Shown: positions 26,784 through 33,401 of the stretch, piece by piece
How the letters are laid out: every line of letters begins with the position of its first letter
Position numbering within the stretch: the first letter of the stretch is position 1
Assembly: GCA_028280575.1 (NCBI GenBank)
Contig: JANQLN010000010.1
Location: 18,933 to 82,932 of the forward strand
Origin: Clostridia bacterium
GTDB taxonomy: Bacteria; Bacillota; Clostridia; Acetivibrionales; STF1-152
Reading direction: 5' to 3'
Length of the DNA: 64,000 nt
Notes under the pieces: model-generated
Told to the model about the DNA's origin: nothing
The model's database searches: none
Seen by the model: only the letters and a program-made list of their open reading frames with translations
Position numbers and translations under genes: made by a program

Positions 26784-26808
26784 CAAAAAAAAAGAGGAAA
26801 GCTCCTCT
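26784..26808 (-). terminator. Intrinsic terminator after the membrane AraC regulator gene
   Basis: The minus strand reads AGAGGA gctt TCCTCT followed by T9 (the A-run at 26784..26792 on +). The stem overlaps the TAG stop at 26807..26809. Confidence 0.7.
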
Positions 26809-29131
26809 ATTTTTGACTGCATTCCCGATATTGTCCCGGTGTTATTCCTTCAAACATCTTAAAATATCGAATGAAACCATGTTCGTTATTATATCCTACC
26901 TTTTCGGAAATTTCCCGTATCGATAAATTCGAATCCGTCAGCATTGTTTTACTCTGTTCGATTCTAATGCGGTTAATATATTTGACAAGAGTAGTCCCTT
27001 CACAGTCTTTAAACATTCTGCTGACATAGGTCCGGCTCAAATCCACTTTAGCGGCAACCATATCCAGCGCAATATCTTGGCTGTAATTACTCTGAATATA
27101 TGCTTTGATTATTTCAATATATTTGTTTTTATGACAATTGTGCTTGTTATCTAAATACCCTATAATCTTTTTACAGATATCCAATACCCATGCTTTGATA
27201 TCATCAATGGTTTCATTCTTAGCAAACCTGGTATATATATTGGTTTTACTCCCTAATACTTCCTGCATGGTCCCGCCGTATTCCAAAACAATATTTACCG
27301 CCGAGCTCAACATTCTTTTAAATATCTGCAAAACACATTCTACAGATAAACCAGGTTTTTTCTTGATTTCCAATACCAGTTCTTCAATCAGTTTTTCCAA
27401 AAGTTCATACTCTCTGCTTTCCAGCAGGTTGATAAATATTTTTTCTTTTTTAACCGGATAATAATACAGCACTTCCGTATCCATTTTTCTAATATCCTGT
27501 ATATGAATAACGGTATTGTTGCCAACGAGCAACCGATACTTTAAAGCCCTCAGGGCTCCCAGATATGAGGTTGAAACATCCATAAGATCATGACATATAT
27601 TCCCTATCCCTATTGAAACACTCATGTCAAAATTCTCAAGCACCTGCTGCTTAAACTGCTGTGCAAGTGAGACAATATCGTTTTTGTGCATGTTCACCTT
27701 CATATTGCATAAGGCTGCAATATTTTGCTCCGTATCTATCACCGTAACTAAATTCATTTTATCGGCCAATATTTTTTCTTCCATTTGCCTAATTCTATTC
27801 AAAAATACTTGTCTTTTCCCTTTATCCAGCATGACATTCCCAAATTTATCATTACAGTCCATATCCATAACCATTACAAAAATGCCACTGCCTGTCAAGG
27901 TTATTTCCAGTTCATGTATCTGTTCCATTAAATAGACTCTTGAATCTATCCTGTTTCTCAGTAAATCATTGATGATTTTCTCTTCAATAAGAGTCTTGTT
28001 TTTGTTGTAAAATCCTTTTAATTTTTCCTCGCTGACAGTCACATCATCAAAGAGAGCTGTCAAATACTTGAATTCATCTAAAATTTTCTTCTTGCCGGCA
28101 AATATGCTGGCATTTGAATCCGCTTTATTGACTTTCGTTAAAAACTTTTCAATGGGATTATAGATTTTTCGGGATACGGGATAACTGATAATAATGGCTG
28201 CAATGCTCATCATTGCAATGATAATGACCGTACTGTCCCGGATATTATTTAATACTTTAAGTTCTTCTTTCAGATCGGTTACAGCTAAATATATCCGTCC
28301 ATTGGGTGAAGACCGGATAAAGGAAACAATATTTTTATTTTTTTCTCCGTCAAAAAAATATCCCTCTTTATCCTGTGCCACCTTTTGCATGAAATGCAAG
28401 GGCATATGCTGGTCTGTTACCGGTTGATTTGAAGAGATAATTGATCCGTTTTCATACAGCATGTAGAGCTGCGTTTGCCCATTCAACACAATTTCACTTA
28501 AGCTTTCCCACAATCTCTTTTCATCTAAAACAAAAATGATATATCCCTTGCTCTTTTTTCCAAGCAGAGGTACTTTTTGCAAATACACGATGTTTCCGCC
28601 CGTACTTTCCACAAAAATAGGCTCTTTAAAACTTGTCCGTGTTAACTTTTCACCAATTTCACCTGCATGCATCTTTTGCATCCAATGATAGTCAATCACT
28701 TTTTTATCCTTTTCAAAACCGTTTTTGACAGAAAATACACCACGATTGTTAAAGCTGTAAATATAAATATCTTTTATGGCATCTTCATTATAAACAATCC
28801 AGCTCATTTCTTCACTTAATTTGTATAAAGAATAAAAAATTTCGCTGTTCTCATTGATAAAACTCAAAGTGCTTTGGTTTTTCAATAAATTGATTGCCGT
28901 ATTTTCTACATTCTTAAAAGTCTGCTCATAGGTTTTATTAATCTGTCGCAGTACTTGTATATTATGCTTTGTGATTTCATGTTCAATGCTTTTGCCGGAT
29001 AAATTATAGGAAATATATCCAAGCAAAGTCATGAGTGCAATGATAATTAGAACAAAGGATACATAAAGTTTTACAAAAGTTTTGCCAAACGGGAAATTAA
29101 ACCGCAATATAACCACCCCAAAGAATAACAT
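26807..29131 (-). CDS. Membrane-anchored one-component AraC-family regulator (TM, extracytoplasmic sensor domain, TM, cytoplasmic linker, AraC HTH)
   Basis: 774 aa. Two hydrophobic helices (VSFVLIIIALMTLLGYISY and TVIIIAMMSIAAIIISYPV) bracket a domain of about 270 aa. The C-terminus is a classic AraC double HTH (...LDMVAAKVDLSRTYVSRMFKD...LSIREISEKVGYNNEHGFIRYFKMFEGITPGQYR). There is no receiver, HisKA or HATPase motif. The ATG at 29131 lacks an SD. The TTG at 29107 has GGGGTGG 5 nt upstream and may be the true start. Confidence 0.85.
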   Translation of the reverse strand: MLFFGVVILRFNFPFGKTFVKLYVSFVLIIIALMTLLGYISYNLSGKSIEHEITKHNIQVLRQINKTYEQTFKNVENTAINLLKNQSTLSFINENSEIFYSLYKLSEEMSWIVYNEDAIKDIYIYSFNNRGVFSVKNGFEKDKKVIDYHWMQKMHAGEIGEKLTRTSFKEPIFVESTGGNIVYLQKVPLLGKKSKGYIIFVLDEKRLWESLSEIVLNGQTQLYMLYENGSIISSNQPVTDQHMPLHFMQKVAQDKEGYFFDGEKNKNIVSFIRSSPNGRIYLAVTDLKEELKVLNNIRDSTVIIIAMMSIAAIIISYPVSRKIYNPIEKFLTKVNKADSNASIFAGKKKILDEFKYLTALFDDVTVSEEKLKGFYNKNKTLIEEKIINDLLRNRIDSRVYLMEQIHELEITLTGSGIFVMVMDMDCNDKFGNVMLDKGKRQVFLNRIRQMEEKILADKMNLVTVIDTEQNIAALCNMKVNMHKNDIVSLAQQFKQQVLENFDMSVSIGIGNICHDLMDVSTSYLGALRALKYRLLVGNNTVIHIQDIRKMDTEVLYYYPVKKEKIFINLLESREYELLEKLIEELVLEIKKKPGLSVECVLQIFKRMLSSAVNIVLEYGGTMQEVLGSKTNIYTRFAKNETIDDIKAWVLDICKKIIGYLDNKHNCHKNKYIEIIKAYIQSNYSQDIALDMVAAKVDLSRTYVSRMFKDCEGTTLVKYINRIRIEQSKTMLTDSNLSIREISEKVGYNNEHGFIRYFKMFEGITPGQYRECSQK

Positions 29132-29323: not shown

Positions 29324-30871
29324 TTACCGCCCAAATCTTCCTTTGCGGCCGTAAAATGCAAAATGCATCTGTGGTGTGCCGTTTATAAGATTGCCGTCGC
29401 ATTCCTTGATCAGTTTCTGCCTTAGTTCATCTACCTTTTCCGGATACTTTTCCGCTACGTTTTTTTCCTCACGATAGTCTTCCCGGATATTAAAAAGCTG
29501 GTATTCCACCATCTCCTGCATATCGTCAAGGAACGCACCAAGACGCTCATATCGGTATTGCTCCATATCGATTACAGCCCTTATCTTCCAGCCGTCTCTG
29601 GTGACAAGCGCAGGTCCCATGTAGCTGGCATATACAACATATTCGTGAGCTTGAAGATTATGCCAGGCACCGGTCAAAAGAGGTGCAAAGGAAATACCGT
29701 CCTTGTTCTCAGGTATTTCTATCTCCAGCAGTTCTGCTAAGGTAGGCATAAGGTCATAATTAGCAACCATGTGGTCGGTTATCCTGCCCGGCTTTATTAT
29801 GCCCGGCCAGCGCATGATATATGGAATCCTCACTCCGCCTTCCCAACTGGTGAATTTCAGCCCTGCCATCCCGTCATTACCGTCAAACACATCTCCACAG
29901 GTATTGGAATAAAATTTGGTATTAATGTTATCTATTTTCTCTCCGCTGCTCGTCATTTCACGCAGGACTCTGCCTTCCTGTCGGTATTGCAGTGCGTGTC
30001 CATTGTCTGAGCTAAAAATGACCAGAGTATTTTCACTTAGGTTGAGCCTTTCAAGCTCGTCCAGGATCAGTCCCACCGTTTTATCCAGCCTCAATATCAT
30101 GGAGGCAAATTCCTTTTCAAGATCGTTGAGAACAGGATTATCTGCAACACCCGGATGGATCTCAGGGAAAAATATGGAGCCATGGGGAAGCTGTGACGGA
30201 TGATATAAGAAAAAGGGTTTGTCCCTATGTTCCCTTATGAATTCAATGATTTTTTCATCGAACAAATCCTGTGAGTATACCTTTCTGCCTGTCATGTCAA
30301 TTTGCTCGCCCTGTTCAAAGGCACTGCGTTTGGCTCCGCAGTTCACAAAGGTATTTCCTTCAATCTCAAATTTTTTTCCGTTTTTAAACAAAAAGGTGGG
30401 ATAATAGCCATGACATCTCAAATGATCATAATAACCATAATGGTAGTCCCAGCCATGGCGTTCTACTTCGTCTCCAGTGGTTGCAAAACCCCACTCAAGC
30501 TTGCCGATCTGTCCGGTTACATAGCCGGCTTTTTGAGCAATCTGAGGGAGAAAAACATCCTCGGATCCGTCCTGTATGCCTGTATTATGGATTAATTCAT
30601 ACACTTCTTCCATTGTCAGGGCTCCTTTATCAATTTCCTTATAAATACCAGCTTTTGTAAAAGTCCATCTTCCTGCATGTGCATCATGCAGCCCGCACAG
30701 TACACTGGCTCTTGCCGGTGCACAGAAGGCACATCCGTATGCTTGGTTGAACATTATCCCTTCCCCGGATAAACGATCAATATTCGGAGTCTGAAAATGT
30801 TTTTGCCCGTAGCAGCTAAGCATTCCTCTTCCAAGATCATCGGCATAGATATATATAATATTTGGTTTCAT
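29324..30871 (-). CDS. Sulfatase (formylglycine-dependent, Cys-type, arylsulfatase A-like), no signal peptide
   Basis: 515 aa with the segment PNIIYIYADDLGRG and the signature CAPARASVLCG (C-x-P-x-R). There is no hydrophobic leader. RBS AAGGAGG. Confidence 0.88.
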   Translation of the reverse strand: MKPNIIYIYADDLGRGMLSCYGQKHFQTPNIDRLSGEGIMFNQAYGCAFCAPARASVLCGLHDAHAGRWTFTKAGIYKEIDKGALTMEEVYELIHNTGIQDGSEDVFLPQIAQKAGYVTGQIGKLEWGFATTGDEVERHGWDYHYGYYDHLRCHGYYPTFLFKNGKKFEIEGNTFVNCGAKRSAFEQGEQIDMTGRKVYSQDLFDEKIIEFIREHRDKPFFLYHPSQLPHGSIFFPEIHPGVADNPVLNDLEKEFASMILRLDKTVGLILDELERLNLSENTLVIFSSDNGHALQYRQEGRVLREMTSSGEKIDNINTKFYSNTCGDVFDGNDGMAGLKFTSWEGGVRIPYIMRWPGIIKPGRITDHMVANYDLMPTLAELLEIEIPENKDGISFAPLLTGAWHNLQAHEYVVYASYMGPALVTRDGWKIRAVIDMEQYRYERLGAFLDDMQEMVEYQLFNIREDYREEKNVAEKYPEKVDELRQKLIKECDGNLINGTPQMHFAFYGRKGRFGR

Positions 30872-31190: not shown

Positions 31191-31937
31191 TTATTTAAGA
31201 ATAATAATTTTCTTAAGGGGTGCATAAACCAAAAGTGCAATAATCATGCCTGTTGTAAACTGTAATATATTAAACGGTATATTAACTACAGGGACCACAT
31301 AGCTTCCGTAAATCACATATTCAGCGATATAGTAACCTATTGCCATCCACAGGCCTGCAGCAATAATACCCATAATAAATGTCAAATTTATATTATGTCC
31401 TTTCCTGTACATATAAGCACCCAGTCCGGCCGCAATTACAACAACCAGTAATGTTGATACCAGCAAAACCGTCTGTACGTAATTGTTAAGGCTTATAAGC
31501 TCCGGTACGCTGTTTACCGTCTCAATTTCATCTACCAGTTGAGGCGATATGGTATCTACAGCTTTATTTAATAAAGATTTTGCAGTAATTACAAATACCG
31601 TCCAAATTGCTATTACTGATGAGGAAAAATATATTTTGCTTTTTTTCTTTTTAAGAGAAAATGCTATTCCCACCAATACGGCCATCAATACTTTTATTAT
31701 AAGCGTAAACGGTGCCCACTGCATATATCCTCCCATTATATCTGCAAGCATGGAACCCAGGCCGGCCGCTGCGGCACCATACTTCCATCCAAGCAGAATT
31801 GCCGACAGGAAAACCATACAGTCTCCCAGGTGAACATACCCCCCGCTCACAATGGGCATTGGTAATTTAAGCGATGTGGCAGCTGTGACCAATGCTACCA
31901 TAATACCTGTATATGCCACCCTTCTTACATTCACCAT
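31191..31937 (-). CDS. ECF-transporter substrate-specific (S) component-like membrane protein, substrate unknown
   Basis: 248 aa and all-helical, with an N-terminal pattern typical of ECF S components (RRVAYTGIMVALVTAATSL...GGYVHLGDCMVFLSAILLGWKYGAAAAGLGSMLADIMGG). An extra hydrophobic insert of about 70 aa sits mid-protein. There are no ECF A/T genes in the window. RBS GGGGAGGGAG. Confidence 0.65.
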   Translation of the reverse strand: MVNVRRVAYTGIMVALVTAATSLKLPMPIVSGGYVHLGDCMVFLSAILLGWKYGAAAAGLGSMLADIMGGYMQWAPFTLIIKVLMAVLVGIAFSLKKKKSKIYFSSSVIAIWTVFVITAKSLLNKAVDTISPQLVDEIETVNSVPELISLNNYVQTVLLVSTLLVVVIAAGLGAYMYRKGHNINLTFIMGIIAAGLWMAIGYYIAEYVIYGSYVVPVVNIPFNILQFTTGMIIALLVYAPLKKIIILK

Positions 31938-32042
31938 ATTTTCTCCCTCCCCTATATTGATTTTGTTTCTATTATATTGTACTATAACATTAAACTGTAC
32001 ATTAAAAAAGTGTCAGTTTTATAAATTTATAAGGGGTCAGTT

Positions 32043-33401
32043 ATGCTGGAATTAATATTGAACTTCAAAAGTAGTAAAGTGAAGCCTAAATATGTAAGGC
32101 TTTACAAATATATAAGGGATGAAATTGAATCAAAAAGAATAGGGCCTAATGAAAAAATCCCTTCAATCAGGCTGGTTGCAAAGCAGCTTGGCATAAGCAG
32201 GACAACGGTGGAAAATGCATACTACCAGTTAACACTTGAGGGCTATATTTACAGCCGCAGCAAAAGTGGTTATTATGCTTGTGACATAGGAACAATACCG
32301 TCAAACAAAAATATGGATATAAAAACGGTAAATGAGGATTTTCAGGTATTTGATAAAAACACCGGAGAATATTTGGATGAGGGCTGTTTTAGCTTTGCTG
32401 CATGGAAAAAAAGCTACAACAGGGTGTTATTATACCAGAGCAAAAAACTTATTCAGCACGGCAGCCCCCAGGGTGAAATTGAGCTGAGACAGGAATTGTC
32501 AAAATATGTATACAGATCCCGGGGAGTAAAATGCACCTTTGACCAGATAATTATAGGTGCGGGAGTACAAGTATTATTAGGCATATTGTGTACCCTGCTT
32601 AAAACGCTGAACATATCCGGAATAGCTTTTGAAGACCCTGGCTTTACCGATGTCTGGCATGTATTTGAAGATTACGGCTTCAATCTCTTGCCTGTAAGTG
32701 TATCTGAAAGAGGGTTAAACGTAAAGGAGCTGGCAGAAAGCAGTGCTCAAATATGCTACGTAAGCCCGTCTCATCAATTCCCCACCGGTACTATAATGCC
32801 TGTGGGAAACAGGCTGGACCTTCTTAAATGGTCAAAAGACAATAATTCATATATAATTGAGGACGATTATGACAGTGAGCTAAGGTATTCGGGTAATCCT
32901 ATACCAAGTCTGCAAAGCCTTGACATGTATGGCAGAGTCGTATATCTTGGTTCATTTTCAACAGTATTTTTACCATCTGTCAGGATCAGTTATATGATAC
33001 TGCCCGGCATTTTGCTCAAGCAATATAAAAAATTTGGCATAAGATATAATCAGACCTCCTCAAAAATCGAACAATTGACATTGGCAAGCTATATTAATGA
33101 AGGTGAATTTGAAAGACATTTAAGGCGTATCCGCAAAAAATTTGCAGTCAAGTATGCCCTGTTGAAAAATTCAATTGAAAAACTGTGCGCACAAAGGATC
33201 AAAATACTTCCTTCAGATTCAGGTACAAATATGATTATGCTGTTAAAAGATACAAAAAATGTGTCTGCCGCAGCCAAAAGCATGTGCTCCAAAGGTCTTA
33301 CAGTTAAACATATAAGCGACAGCATGCTGCTTTTGAAATTTACAACTATTCCGGAAAAAAAAATTGCTGCAGCCGCTCAAATCATAAACGGTTGTATTTA
33401 A
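32043..33401 (+). CDS. MocR/GabR-subfamily GntR regulator (wHTH + fold-type-I aminotransferase-like domain) lacking the PLP lysine
   Basis: 452 aa with the GntR HTH KIPSIRLVAKQLGISRTTVENAYYQL and an AAT-like domain (IEDDYDSELRY...). The motif expected to read SFSK-x-L-x-P-x-x-R-I-S/G-Y reads GSFSTVFLPSVRISY, with Thr307 (codon ACA at 32961..32963) where the Schiff-base Lys sits in GabR as I recall it. Confidence 0.85.
   Translation: MLELILNFKSSKVKPKYVRLYKYIRDEIESKRIGPNEKIPSIRLVAKQLGISRTTVENAYYQLTLEGYIYSRSKSGYYACDIGTIPSNKNMDIKTVNEDFQVFDKNTGEYLDEGCFSFAAWKKSYNRVLLYQSKKLIQHGSPQGEIELRQELSKYVYRSRGVKCTFDQIIIGAGVQVLLGILCTLLKTLNISGIAFEDPGFTDVWHVFEDYGFNLLPVSVSERGLNVKELAESSAQICYVSPSHQFPTGTIMPVGNRLDLLKWSKDNNSYIIEDDYDSELRYSGNPIPSLQSLDMYGRVVYLGSFSTVFLPSVRISYMILPGILLKQYKKFGIRYNQTSSKIEQLTLASYINEGEFERHLRRIRKKFAVKYALLKNSIEKLCAQRIKILPSDSGTNMIMLLKDTKNVSAAAKSMCSKGLTVKHISDSMLLLKFTTIPEKKIAAAAQIINGCI

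Follow-up and report, generated by a model that had tools for sequence, protein, structure and literature searches.

We describe a divergent gene pair in a 64,000-nucleotide stretch of the genome of a Clostridia bacterium (GenBank assembly GCA_028280575.1, contig JANQLN010000010.1; C51:18933-82932 of genome G000 in our numbering), which is referred to here as the window. The genome is 4.35 Mb long and 99% complete. One gene of the pair encodes a MocR-type transcriptional regulator, related to the vitamin B6 regulator PdxR, in which a threonine occupies the position of the lysine that carries pyridoxal 5'-phosphate (PLP) as a Schiff base. The other encodes a membrane protein that we identify as an S-component of an energy-coupling factor (ECF) transporter. 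Comparisons with homologs indicate that the substitution is the mark of a large clade and not an accident of the window gene. The regulator is probably a PdxR-like activator of a B6-type importer and a repressor of its own gene, and it would sense a phosphorylated B6 vitamer noncovalently.

A PdxR-type regulator with threonine at the Schiff-base position

The two open reading frames (ORFs) lie at 31191..31937 on the minus strand and 32043..33401 on the plus strand and share a 105-bp intergenic region (31938..32042). We reread these coordinates from the sequence, and they agree with the ORF limits and the shared control region given in an earlier note on this DNA. The plus-strand gene encodes the regulator, a protein of 452 amino acids with a GntR-type winged helix-turn-helix domain (PF00392, 47.6 bits, residues 17 to 78) and an aminotransferase-like domain (PF00155 Aminotran_1_2, 63.3 bits, about residues 106 to 452). 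Among the NCBIfam models, the PdxR equivalog (NF052282) gave 437.2 bits against a cutoff of 320. The GabR model gave 353 bits, under its cutoff of 600, and the MocR, PtsJ, YczR, and EhuR models each scored under their cutoffs. The best solved relative found with phmmer was Bacillus clausii PdxR (Protein Data Bank [PDB] entry 7pq9; E = 1e-81), followed by Bacillus subtilis GabR (4n0b; E = 1.4e-71). An AlphaFold2 (AF2) model had a predicted local distance difference test (pLDDT) score of 84.9, with a confident aminotransferase-like domain and a disordered linker at residues 83 to 106 (pLDDT below 50), and Foldseek returned GabR and PdxR as its top folds (E = 1e-40 to 1e-29). The winged helix-turn-helix, the linker, and the fold-type I aminotransferase-like domain that define the MocR subfamily are thus all present, and the Schiff-base lysine is missing. 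These sequence matches put the regulator at ortholog level with PdxR. The same genome encodes a second MocR (G000:C81:37335-38597; L002 1390-2787), which is 33% identical to the window regulator and has the lysine in place (GTFSKILCPAFRIGY). The gene divergent from it encodes a 301-amino-acid membrane protein that seems to have 10 transmembrane segments and is of the EamA/DMT type by appearance.

The Schiff-base lysine is K309 in PdxR and K312 in GabR (PMC10450172). The earlier note had placed a threonine at this position by eye, and the phmmer alignments agree: codon 307, ACA at 32961..32963 on the plus strand, falls opposite the lysine of PdxR 7pq9 (ylgaFSKslipsvRISYMvLP) and of GabR 4n0b (ymgtFSKsllpglRISYMvLP), with no gap nearby in either alignment. 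The EDDYDSE motif (residues 273 to 279; 32859..32879, plus strand) is retained, as had been noted. The other residues of the PdxR pocket are Ser308, Arg316, and Asp276 (PMC10450172), and all three have counterparts in the window protein, as S306, R314, and D274. D274 corresponds to the aspartate at the pyridine nitrogen (D276 in PdxR and D279 in GabR), and Y276 corresponds to Y281 of GabR. The contacts that PdxR makes with PLP besides the lysine, namely, an aspartate on the pyridine nitrogen and a serine and an arginine on the phosphate, are therefore all in place. Since the alignment register is correct, an internal aldimine at the canonical position is impossible.

We weighed two alternative explanations for the missing lysine. 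The first is a sequencing error, a recent inactivating mutation, or a misalignment by eye. A single base change, AAA to ACA, would suffice for it, but it is effectively ruled out by the gap-free alignment to two solved structures, by the threonine in 78 of the 120 best homologs, and by the use of four different codons in 10 loci. The second is that PLP remains covalently attached, but to a different lysine that has relocated to the pocket. Among pseudoenzymes in general, catalytic residues are known to have migrated (PMC10211241). However, no column of the sensor domain is rich in lysine in the threonine group and poor in it in the nearest lysine-containing orthologs. The only lysine-rich columns of the domain (123, 341, 365, and 370) are equally so in both groups. 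Besides column 307, the sole strongly discriminating column is 238, which is cysteine in the threonine type and valine in the near lysine type. A relocated Schiff base is therefore very improbable, and the conclusion of the earlier note that the protein forms no internal aldimine holds for the canonical position.

The substitution marks a large and conserved clade

A survey of MocR homologs for the same substitution uncovered a large group of lysine-less proteins. MocR hits numbered roughly 20,000 in total. We refer to regulators below as Thr, Ser, or Lys type after their residue at column 307. Among the 120 best homologs of the window protein, this column held 78 threonines, 7 serines, 1 alanine, and 34 lysines. 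When sequences were reduced to representatives at 50% identity, the counts for the 150 best were 93 K, 19 T, 18 S, 11 R, 4 Q, 2 G, 2 N, and 1 A, so the lysine is missing in about 38% of the nearest family representatives. In a FastTree phylogeny of 329 sequences, built with column 307 left out, the window protein fell in a clade of 132 tips with no lysine at all (87 T, 37 S, 6 A, 1 M, and 1 G). One node higher, 24 lysine-containing proteins join as a well-supported group, together with 4 further Thr-type proteins. Because the node that joins all lysine-less members has a support of only 0.53, the tree is compatible with either a single loss followed by reversal or a few parallel losses. A few threonine and serine tips outside the 132-tip clade point to recurrent loss of the lysine. 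A search of 40 related genomes turned up a single close ortholog (55% identity), and the distribution is therefore patchy.

Within the Thr group (n = 93), the mean pairwise identity is 43% and the minimum is 31%. Against this divergence the pocket hardly varies: T307, D274, and S306 are each found in 93 of 93 proteins, Y276 is found in 90, and position 314 is arginine in 83 and lysine in 10. All four threonine codons (ACA, ACC, ACG, and ACT) occur among 10 Thr-type genes. The near-invariant pocket at 43% identity and the turnover of codons argue that the pocket is under selection and that the threonine itself is selected. They also bear on the possibility that the aminotransferase-like domain is a ligand-free dimerization scaffold and that the regulator is constitutive or controlled in some other way. 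Loss of the lysine is a classic mark of a dead PLP fold, and lysine-less variants (T, S, A, M, G, R, Q, and N) recur in the family. Yet neither the near-invariance of D274, S306, Y276, and R/K314 nor a threonine fixed in 93 of 93 proteins through synonymous turnover is expected of a mere scaffold, and we consider this explanation improbable.

The survey turned up several variants of the family. A separate, mostly Lachnospiraceae-like MocR group has an arginine at the Schiff-base position (FSR; L052, L057, and L084, and also L062). Its lysine-containing sisters share the same upstream layout, with a codirectional ORF of about 555 amino acids (a Glu/Gln-tRNA synthetase of the GlnRS type in L051), and lysine loss therefore recurs in other MocR lineages. 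Three Ser-type MocRs of about 730 to 746 amino acids (L042:5977-8166, L047:5968-8205, and P0147) have three domains, the extra one being a C-terminal class IV aminotransferase domain (PF01063, 145 to 157 bits). At the two of these loci that were examined, L042 and L047, the regulator is still divergent from a PF07155 S-component gene. At two other Ser-type loci, a gene for a fusion of SurE (5'-nucleotidase/phosphatase) and isochorismatase comes after that of the MocR (L032:2153-3454 and L036:7415-8737).

The divergent gene encodes a long-form S-component

The minus-strand gene (31191..31937) encodes a membrane protein of 248 amino acids that matched PF07155 (ECF-ribofla_trS) with 114.6 bits, far above the gathering cutoff of 26.7. 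Its best sequence match in the PDB was chain S of entry 4hzu (29.6 bits), which we take to be the HmpT/PdxU2 S-component of the Lactobacillus brevis ECF transporter; HmpT was later reported to carry pyridoxamine and was renamed PdxU2. The AF2 model (pLDDT, 90.2) had the same chain as its best fold, with a template-modeling (TM) score of 0.84 by target and a root mean square deviation of 2.2 Å, ahead of RibU, ThiT, and BioY. The first 11 ranks of the fold search were all ECF S-components (4hzu_S and BioY, RibU, ThiT, and FolT entries), none of them with an E value below 0.001. Chain S of 4hzu is thus a member of the same family and the best match of the window protein by both sequence and fold, although the identity in the structural alignment is only 16% and the window protein has two added long helices (about residues 98 to 178). 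These helices correspond to an insertion of about 85 amino acids (residues about 97 to 185; 31383..31649, minus strand), which is evident from alignment with short forms and HmpT-like proteins and which defines what we call the long form. In the AF2 model the insertion forms two extra long helices, 98 to 129 and 144 to 178, with an acidic loop between them. An energizing module is encoded on another contig of the genome, where adjacent ecfA, ecfA, and ecfT genes (C69:8019-10521) were found by tblastn with 48 to 54% identity to the proteins of locus L027. By its PF07155 score, its fold, and the presence of this module in the genome, the protein qualifies as an ECF S-component.

A divergent PF07155 S-component gene is present in all 10 of the Thr-type loci examined (the window, L013, L014, L018, L025, L093, and L101 to L104), which include Vallitalea okinawensis and Thermoclostridium stercorarium DSM 8532 (L103). 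The encoded proteins have about 250 to 275 amino acids, with the exception of L018 (168 amino acids). Together with the conserved operator described below, which is unique in the genome, this synteny supports the proposal of the earlier note that the regulator controls the divergent S-component gene. The nearest Lys-type orthologs (L015 from Proteiniclasticum ruminis, L107, and two Peptococcaceae-type metagenome-assembled genomes [MAGs]; L015 and L105 to L107 as loci) likewise have a divergent long-form S-component in four of four cases. Lysine and threonine therefore alternate within one conserved regulator-transporter pair. The divergent S-component, whose co-occurrence with the substitution the earlier note had suggested surveying, is thus found at every Thr-type locus examined and at the nearest Lys-type ones as well.

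In a broader sample of 80 loci, a divergent S-component was present at 20 of the 30 non-Lys loci (one more was at a contig end), at 1 of the 46 with lysine, and at none of the 4 with arginine. Most of the Lys loci in this sample belong to distant paralog groups, with PdxK, PNPOx, GNAT, YqcI, DHDPS, and GlnRS as neighbors. We do not count the excess in the 80-locus sample as support for a tie between loss of the lysine and the transporter, as it reflects paralogy and the nearest Lys-type orthologs keep the S-component. In the Ser/Ala/Met subclade (Anaerovoracaceae, Mogibacterium, and relatives), 16 of 26 loci have a short-form S-component; of the other loci in this subclade, three face aroD-ecfA-ecfA-ecfT, one faces a PdxK-like kinase, and one faces NhaC. 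Two relatives of the window regulator provide links to B6 through PdxK or PdxK-like genes opposite them: L045, a lysine-less member, is opposite a PdxK-like kinase, and L055, of the Lys type, is opposite a pdxK operon with a short-form S-component 36% identical to that of the window. At the Ser-type MocR loci L016:4098-4898, L022:4955-5761, and L027:2396-5824, the divergent four-gene operon is led by a type I 3-dehydroquinase. All four genes are annotated in L027, as 3-dehydroquinase followed by ecfA, ecfA, and ecfT, an odd pairing of a shikimate enzyme with an ECF module.

A conserved three-box operator in the intergenic region

We describe the operator as read toward the regulator gene; its boxes are predictions from conserved intergenic sequence. 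Box 1 (AACTGTAC; 31993..32000, plus strand) is an inverted half-site, with the reverse complement GTACAGTT, and stands in the same place in Thr-type intergenic regions. Box 2 (GTGTCAGTT; 32010..32018, plus strand) is direct, contains the core GTCAGTT at 32012..32018, and is conserved across the intergenic regions. Box 3 (GGGTCAGTT; 32034..32042, plus strand) is also direct and follows Box 2 with a 24-bp period (core GTCAGTT at 32036..32042). It touches the ATG of the regulator gene and overlaps the likely ribosome-binding site. The Thr-type consensus is AACTG(T/A)(A/C)C for Box 1, AAGTG(T/A)CAGTT for Box 2, and GGG(T/A)CAGTT for Box 3. Half-sites exactly 24 bp apart occur in 21 of 28 S-component-linked loci of the Thr, Ser, and Lys types, whereas other periods from 18 to 30 bp occur in at most 5 of the 28 loci each and shuffled sequences gave a mean of 0.42 and a maximum of 3. 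The near Lys-type orthologs have the same boxes. The composite pattern of boxes is found once in the window (expected, 0.02). In a genome-wide scan with a position weight matrix (PWM), the paired site was found only here, with a score of 32.9 and the next at 17.2; because of this uniqueness, the regulon appears to be limited to this gene pair. As with PdxR, a combination of direct and inverted repeats lies upstream of a divergent target, here a putative B6 gene. A search of the 105-bp intergenic region against the Rfam families, riboswitches included, gave no match.

The earlier note had proposed two TGTAC-containing half-repeats as the binding sites of the regulator. Both are at the coordinates that it gave, and the one at 31994..32002 (ACTGTACAT) coincides with Box 1. 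The other (ATTGTACTA, 31976..31984) was rejected as an operator box, since other Thr-type loci lack TGTAC at this place and it overlaps a conserved minus-strand TATAGT/TATATT element that resembles a -10 box. The pair as a whole does not stand as the set of binding sites: the main elements, GTCAGTT at 32012 and 32036, had been missed.

The -10-like element is of the extended type (TGTTATAGT; 31981..31989, minus strand), lies at a fixed distance from Box 1, and reads TGnTATAGT or TGnTATATT in most Thr-type loci. It is the putative promoter of the S-component gene. If TGTTATAGT is the -10 box, transcription of the S-component gene would start near 31974, which would put Box 1 at about -19 to -26, the center of Box 2 near -41, and that of Box 3 near -65. 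These positions, together with the lack of a -35 hexamer, suggest the geometry of an activator-dependent promoter. The geometry so derived matches the published PdxR model (PMC10450172).

Vitamin B6 supply in the host genomes

The window genome contains no recognizable PdxS (PF01680), PdxJ (PF03740), or ThiD/PdxK-type kinase (PF08543); its only weak matches to the kinase family are YjeF (contig C8) and a PfkB sugar kinase (contig C67). Across the six Thr-type genomes tested, the window's included, PdxS was found in one, PdxJ in none, and a full-length kinase in one. The genome of the Lys-type locus L015 is also without a full-length kinase, whereas all four tested genomes with a Ser-type regulator and a short-form S-component have one. 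These MAGs are incomplete and interrelated, and we treat the counts as a lead only. Annotation pipelines call the Thr-type proteins "pyridoxine biosynthesis transcription factor PdxR" (e.g., the V. okinawensis member), a label that sits poorly with the absence of pdxS from five of the six Thr-type genomes and with a target that is an importer.

Either these genomes encode a B6 kinase that our search did not recognize, or the long-form S-component imports a vitamer that is already phosphorylated. The contrast between six of seven long-form-pair genomes without a full-length kinase and four of four short-form-pair genomes with one is what suggests the latter. The long-form S-component might then import PLP, pyridoxamine 5'-phosphate (PMP), or pyridoxine 5'-phosphate (PNP), and the lysine-less sensor might read the phosphorylated pool reversibly, so that the two would make up a complete B6 supply system for anaerobes lacking both de novo synthesis and a pyridoxal kinase. 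We put this forward as a speculation, and an unlikely one as matters stand.

A rival account is that the system has nothing to do with B6. The pocket would then bind some other ligand, the S-component would import some other substrate, and the PdxR label would be an artifact of homology. PF07155 also includes riboflavin and hydroxymethylpyrimidine (HMP)-type S-components, pyridoxal kinase is missing from most genomes with the regulator-S-component pair, and some lysine-less relatives have aroD-ecfAAT or NhaC genes opposite them. On the other hand, the residues that contact the phosphate (S306 and R314), the pyridine nitrogen (D274), and the ring (Y276 and F246) are conserved as in lysine-containing relatives, which argues for a ligand shaped like pyridoxal phosphate. 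The Lys-type orthologs share the neighbor and the operator, and related members face pdxK. We therefore regard a non-B6 system as rather unlikely.

Proposed mechanism and relation to known systems

We favor a B6-sensing system. For its ligand, the noncovalent mode of binding, the direction of regulation, and the transported substrate, we infer the following. The pocket of the regulator would bind a phosphorylated B6 vitamer (PLP, or else PMP or PNP) reversibly and with no covalent bond. Such a vitamer is the most likely ligand because the phosphate, pyridine-nitrogen, and ring contacts are retained, and binding would be noncovalent because the lysine is missing; the threonine or serine may form a hydrogen bond with the C4' substituent of the ligand. 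If the regulator works as B. clausii PdxR does, its dimer would, without ligand, occupy Boxes 2 and 3 (the direct repeats), activating the importer gene and blocking its own. Autorepression is suggested by the way in which Box 3 abuts the start codon of the regulator and overlaps its ribosome-binding region. Once it has bound the ligand, the dimer would move to Boxes 1 and 2, the inverted pair that lies in the promoter spacer, and would no longer activate. To take up a B6 vitamer, the S-component would associate with the shared EcfA-EcfA'-EcfT module, whose genes lie on another contig.

A number of observations weigh against this model. The substrate of the S-component is argued from the regulator and from distant homology only (29.6 bits to 4hzu_S), and long-form S-components that occur without a MocR (in Bathyarchaeia and Caloranaerobacter) have genomic contexts that give no clue to a substrate. 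Some Ser-type relatives face aroD-ecfAAT or NhaC and not B6 genes. A recognizable PdxK/ThiD-type kinase is absent from the window genome and from five more of the seven long-form genomes tested. The node that joins the lysine-less members is weak, as described above. The promoter geometry is our own reading, and its positions come from arithmetic on the -10-like element. A consensus scan, which needs a -35 element, called no canonical sigma-70 promoter for the S-component gene; this null result is compatible with an activator-dependent promoter and proves nothing.

The closest known system is PdxR of B. clausii (PDB entries 7pq9, 7zla, 7zn5, 7zpa, and 7zth; PMC10450172), which shares with the window regulator the two-domain architecture, the fold, and the aspartate, serine, and arginine contacts to PLP. 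Like the window gene, it is divergent from its target, and its operator also combines one inverted repeat with two direct ones. The two differ in that Lys309 of B. clausii PdxR carries PLP as a Schiff base where the window regulator has a threonine, and in their targets, which are pdxST in B. clausii and an ECF S-component in the window, whose host genome is without pdxS. In the PdxR model, the apoprotein on the direct repeats activates transcription, and the PLP form prefers the inverted pair, which ends activation (PMC10450172). When B6 is scarce, PdxR of Streptococcus pyogenes activates pdxKU and represses itself (PMC11619246), and PdxR regulons are known to include pdxU (PMC5320631). PdxU and PdxU2/HmpT, which belong to PF07155, are two of a small number of B6 transporters whose substrate has been verified (PMC9997740). 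The PdxR-PdxKU locus of S. pyogenes resembles that of the window in that the gene of a MocR-type regulator faces genes for B6 salvage and uptake, one of which encodes a PF07155 S-component. In the window, however, the target is an S-component gene alone, with no pdxK, and the protein is of the long form, with its insertion of about 85 amino acids. GabR of B. subtilis (4n0b, 4mgr, and 5t4j) has the same fold and pocket motifs (EDDYDSE and FS-x-...-RISYM). GabR depends on the PLP bound to K312, with which γ-aminobutyric acid (GABA) forms an external aldimine, whereas transaldimination at a canonical lysine is impossible in the window regulator.

A family-wide classification reports Lys312 as conserved across all MocR clusters (PMC6677901). 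Our literature search found no publication that describes a lysine-less MocR or PdxR clade, although it may have been mentioned in passing elsewhere. To our knowledge, every characterized MocR (GabR, PdxR, TauR, EnuR, and PtsJ) has been described as acting through PLP on an active-site lysine. BioL and PhpR were considered as precedents and set aside; they are unusual MocRs for reasons other than loss of the lysine. With no paper found, a lysine-less PdxR-type clade coupled to a long-form PdxU/HmpT-like importer is apparently undescribed before. In one large clade, purifying selection has maintained the threonine, and the other pocket residues have been preserved along with the target gene and the operator. 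Matched Lys- and Thr-type orthologs with the same neighbor offer a natural test of what the covalent bond contributes to affinity, kinetics, and vitamer selectivity, and cultured hosts such as T. stercorarium DSM 8532 make the question experimentally tractable.

Two further genes of the window, both upstream of the S-component gene and on the minus strand, appear to have no connection with the B6 pair. The one at 29324-30871 encodes a sulfatase (PF00884, 161.8 bits), and the one at 26807-29131 encodes a 774-amino-acid membrane-anchored protein; the C terminus of the latter resembles an AraC-type helix-turn-helix domain.

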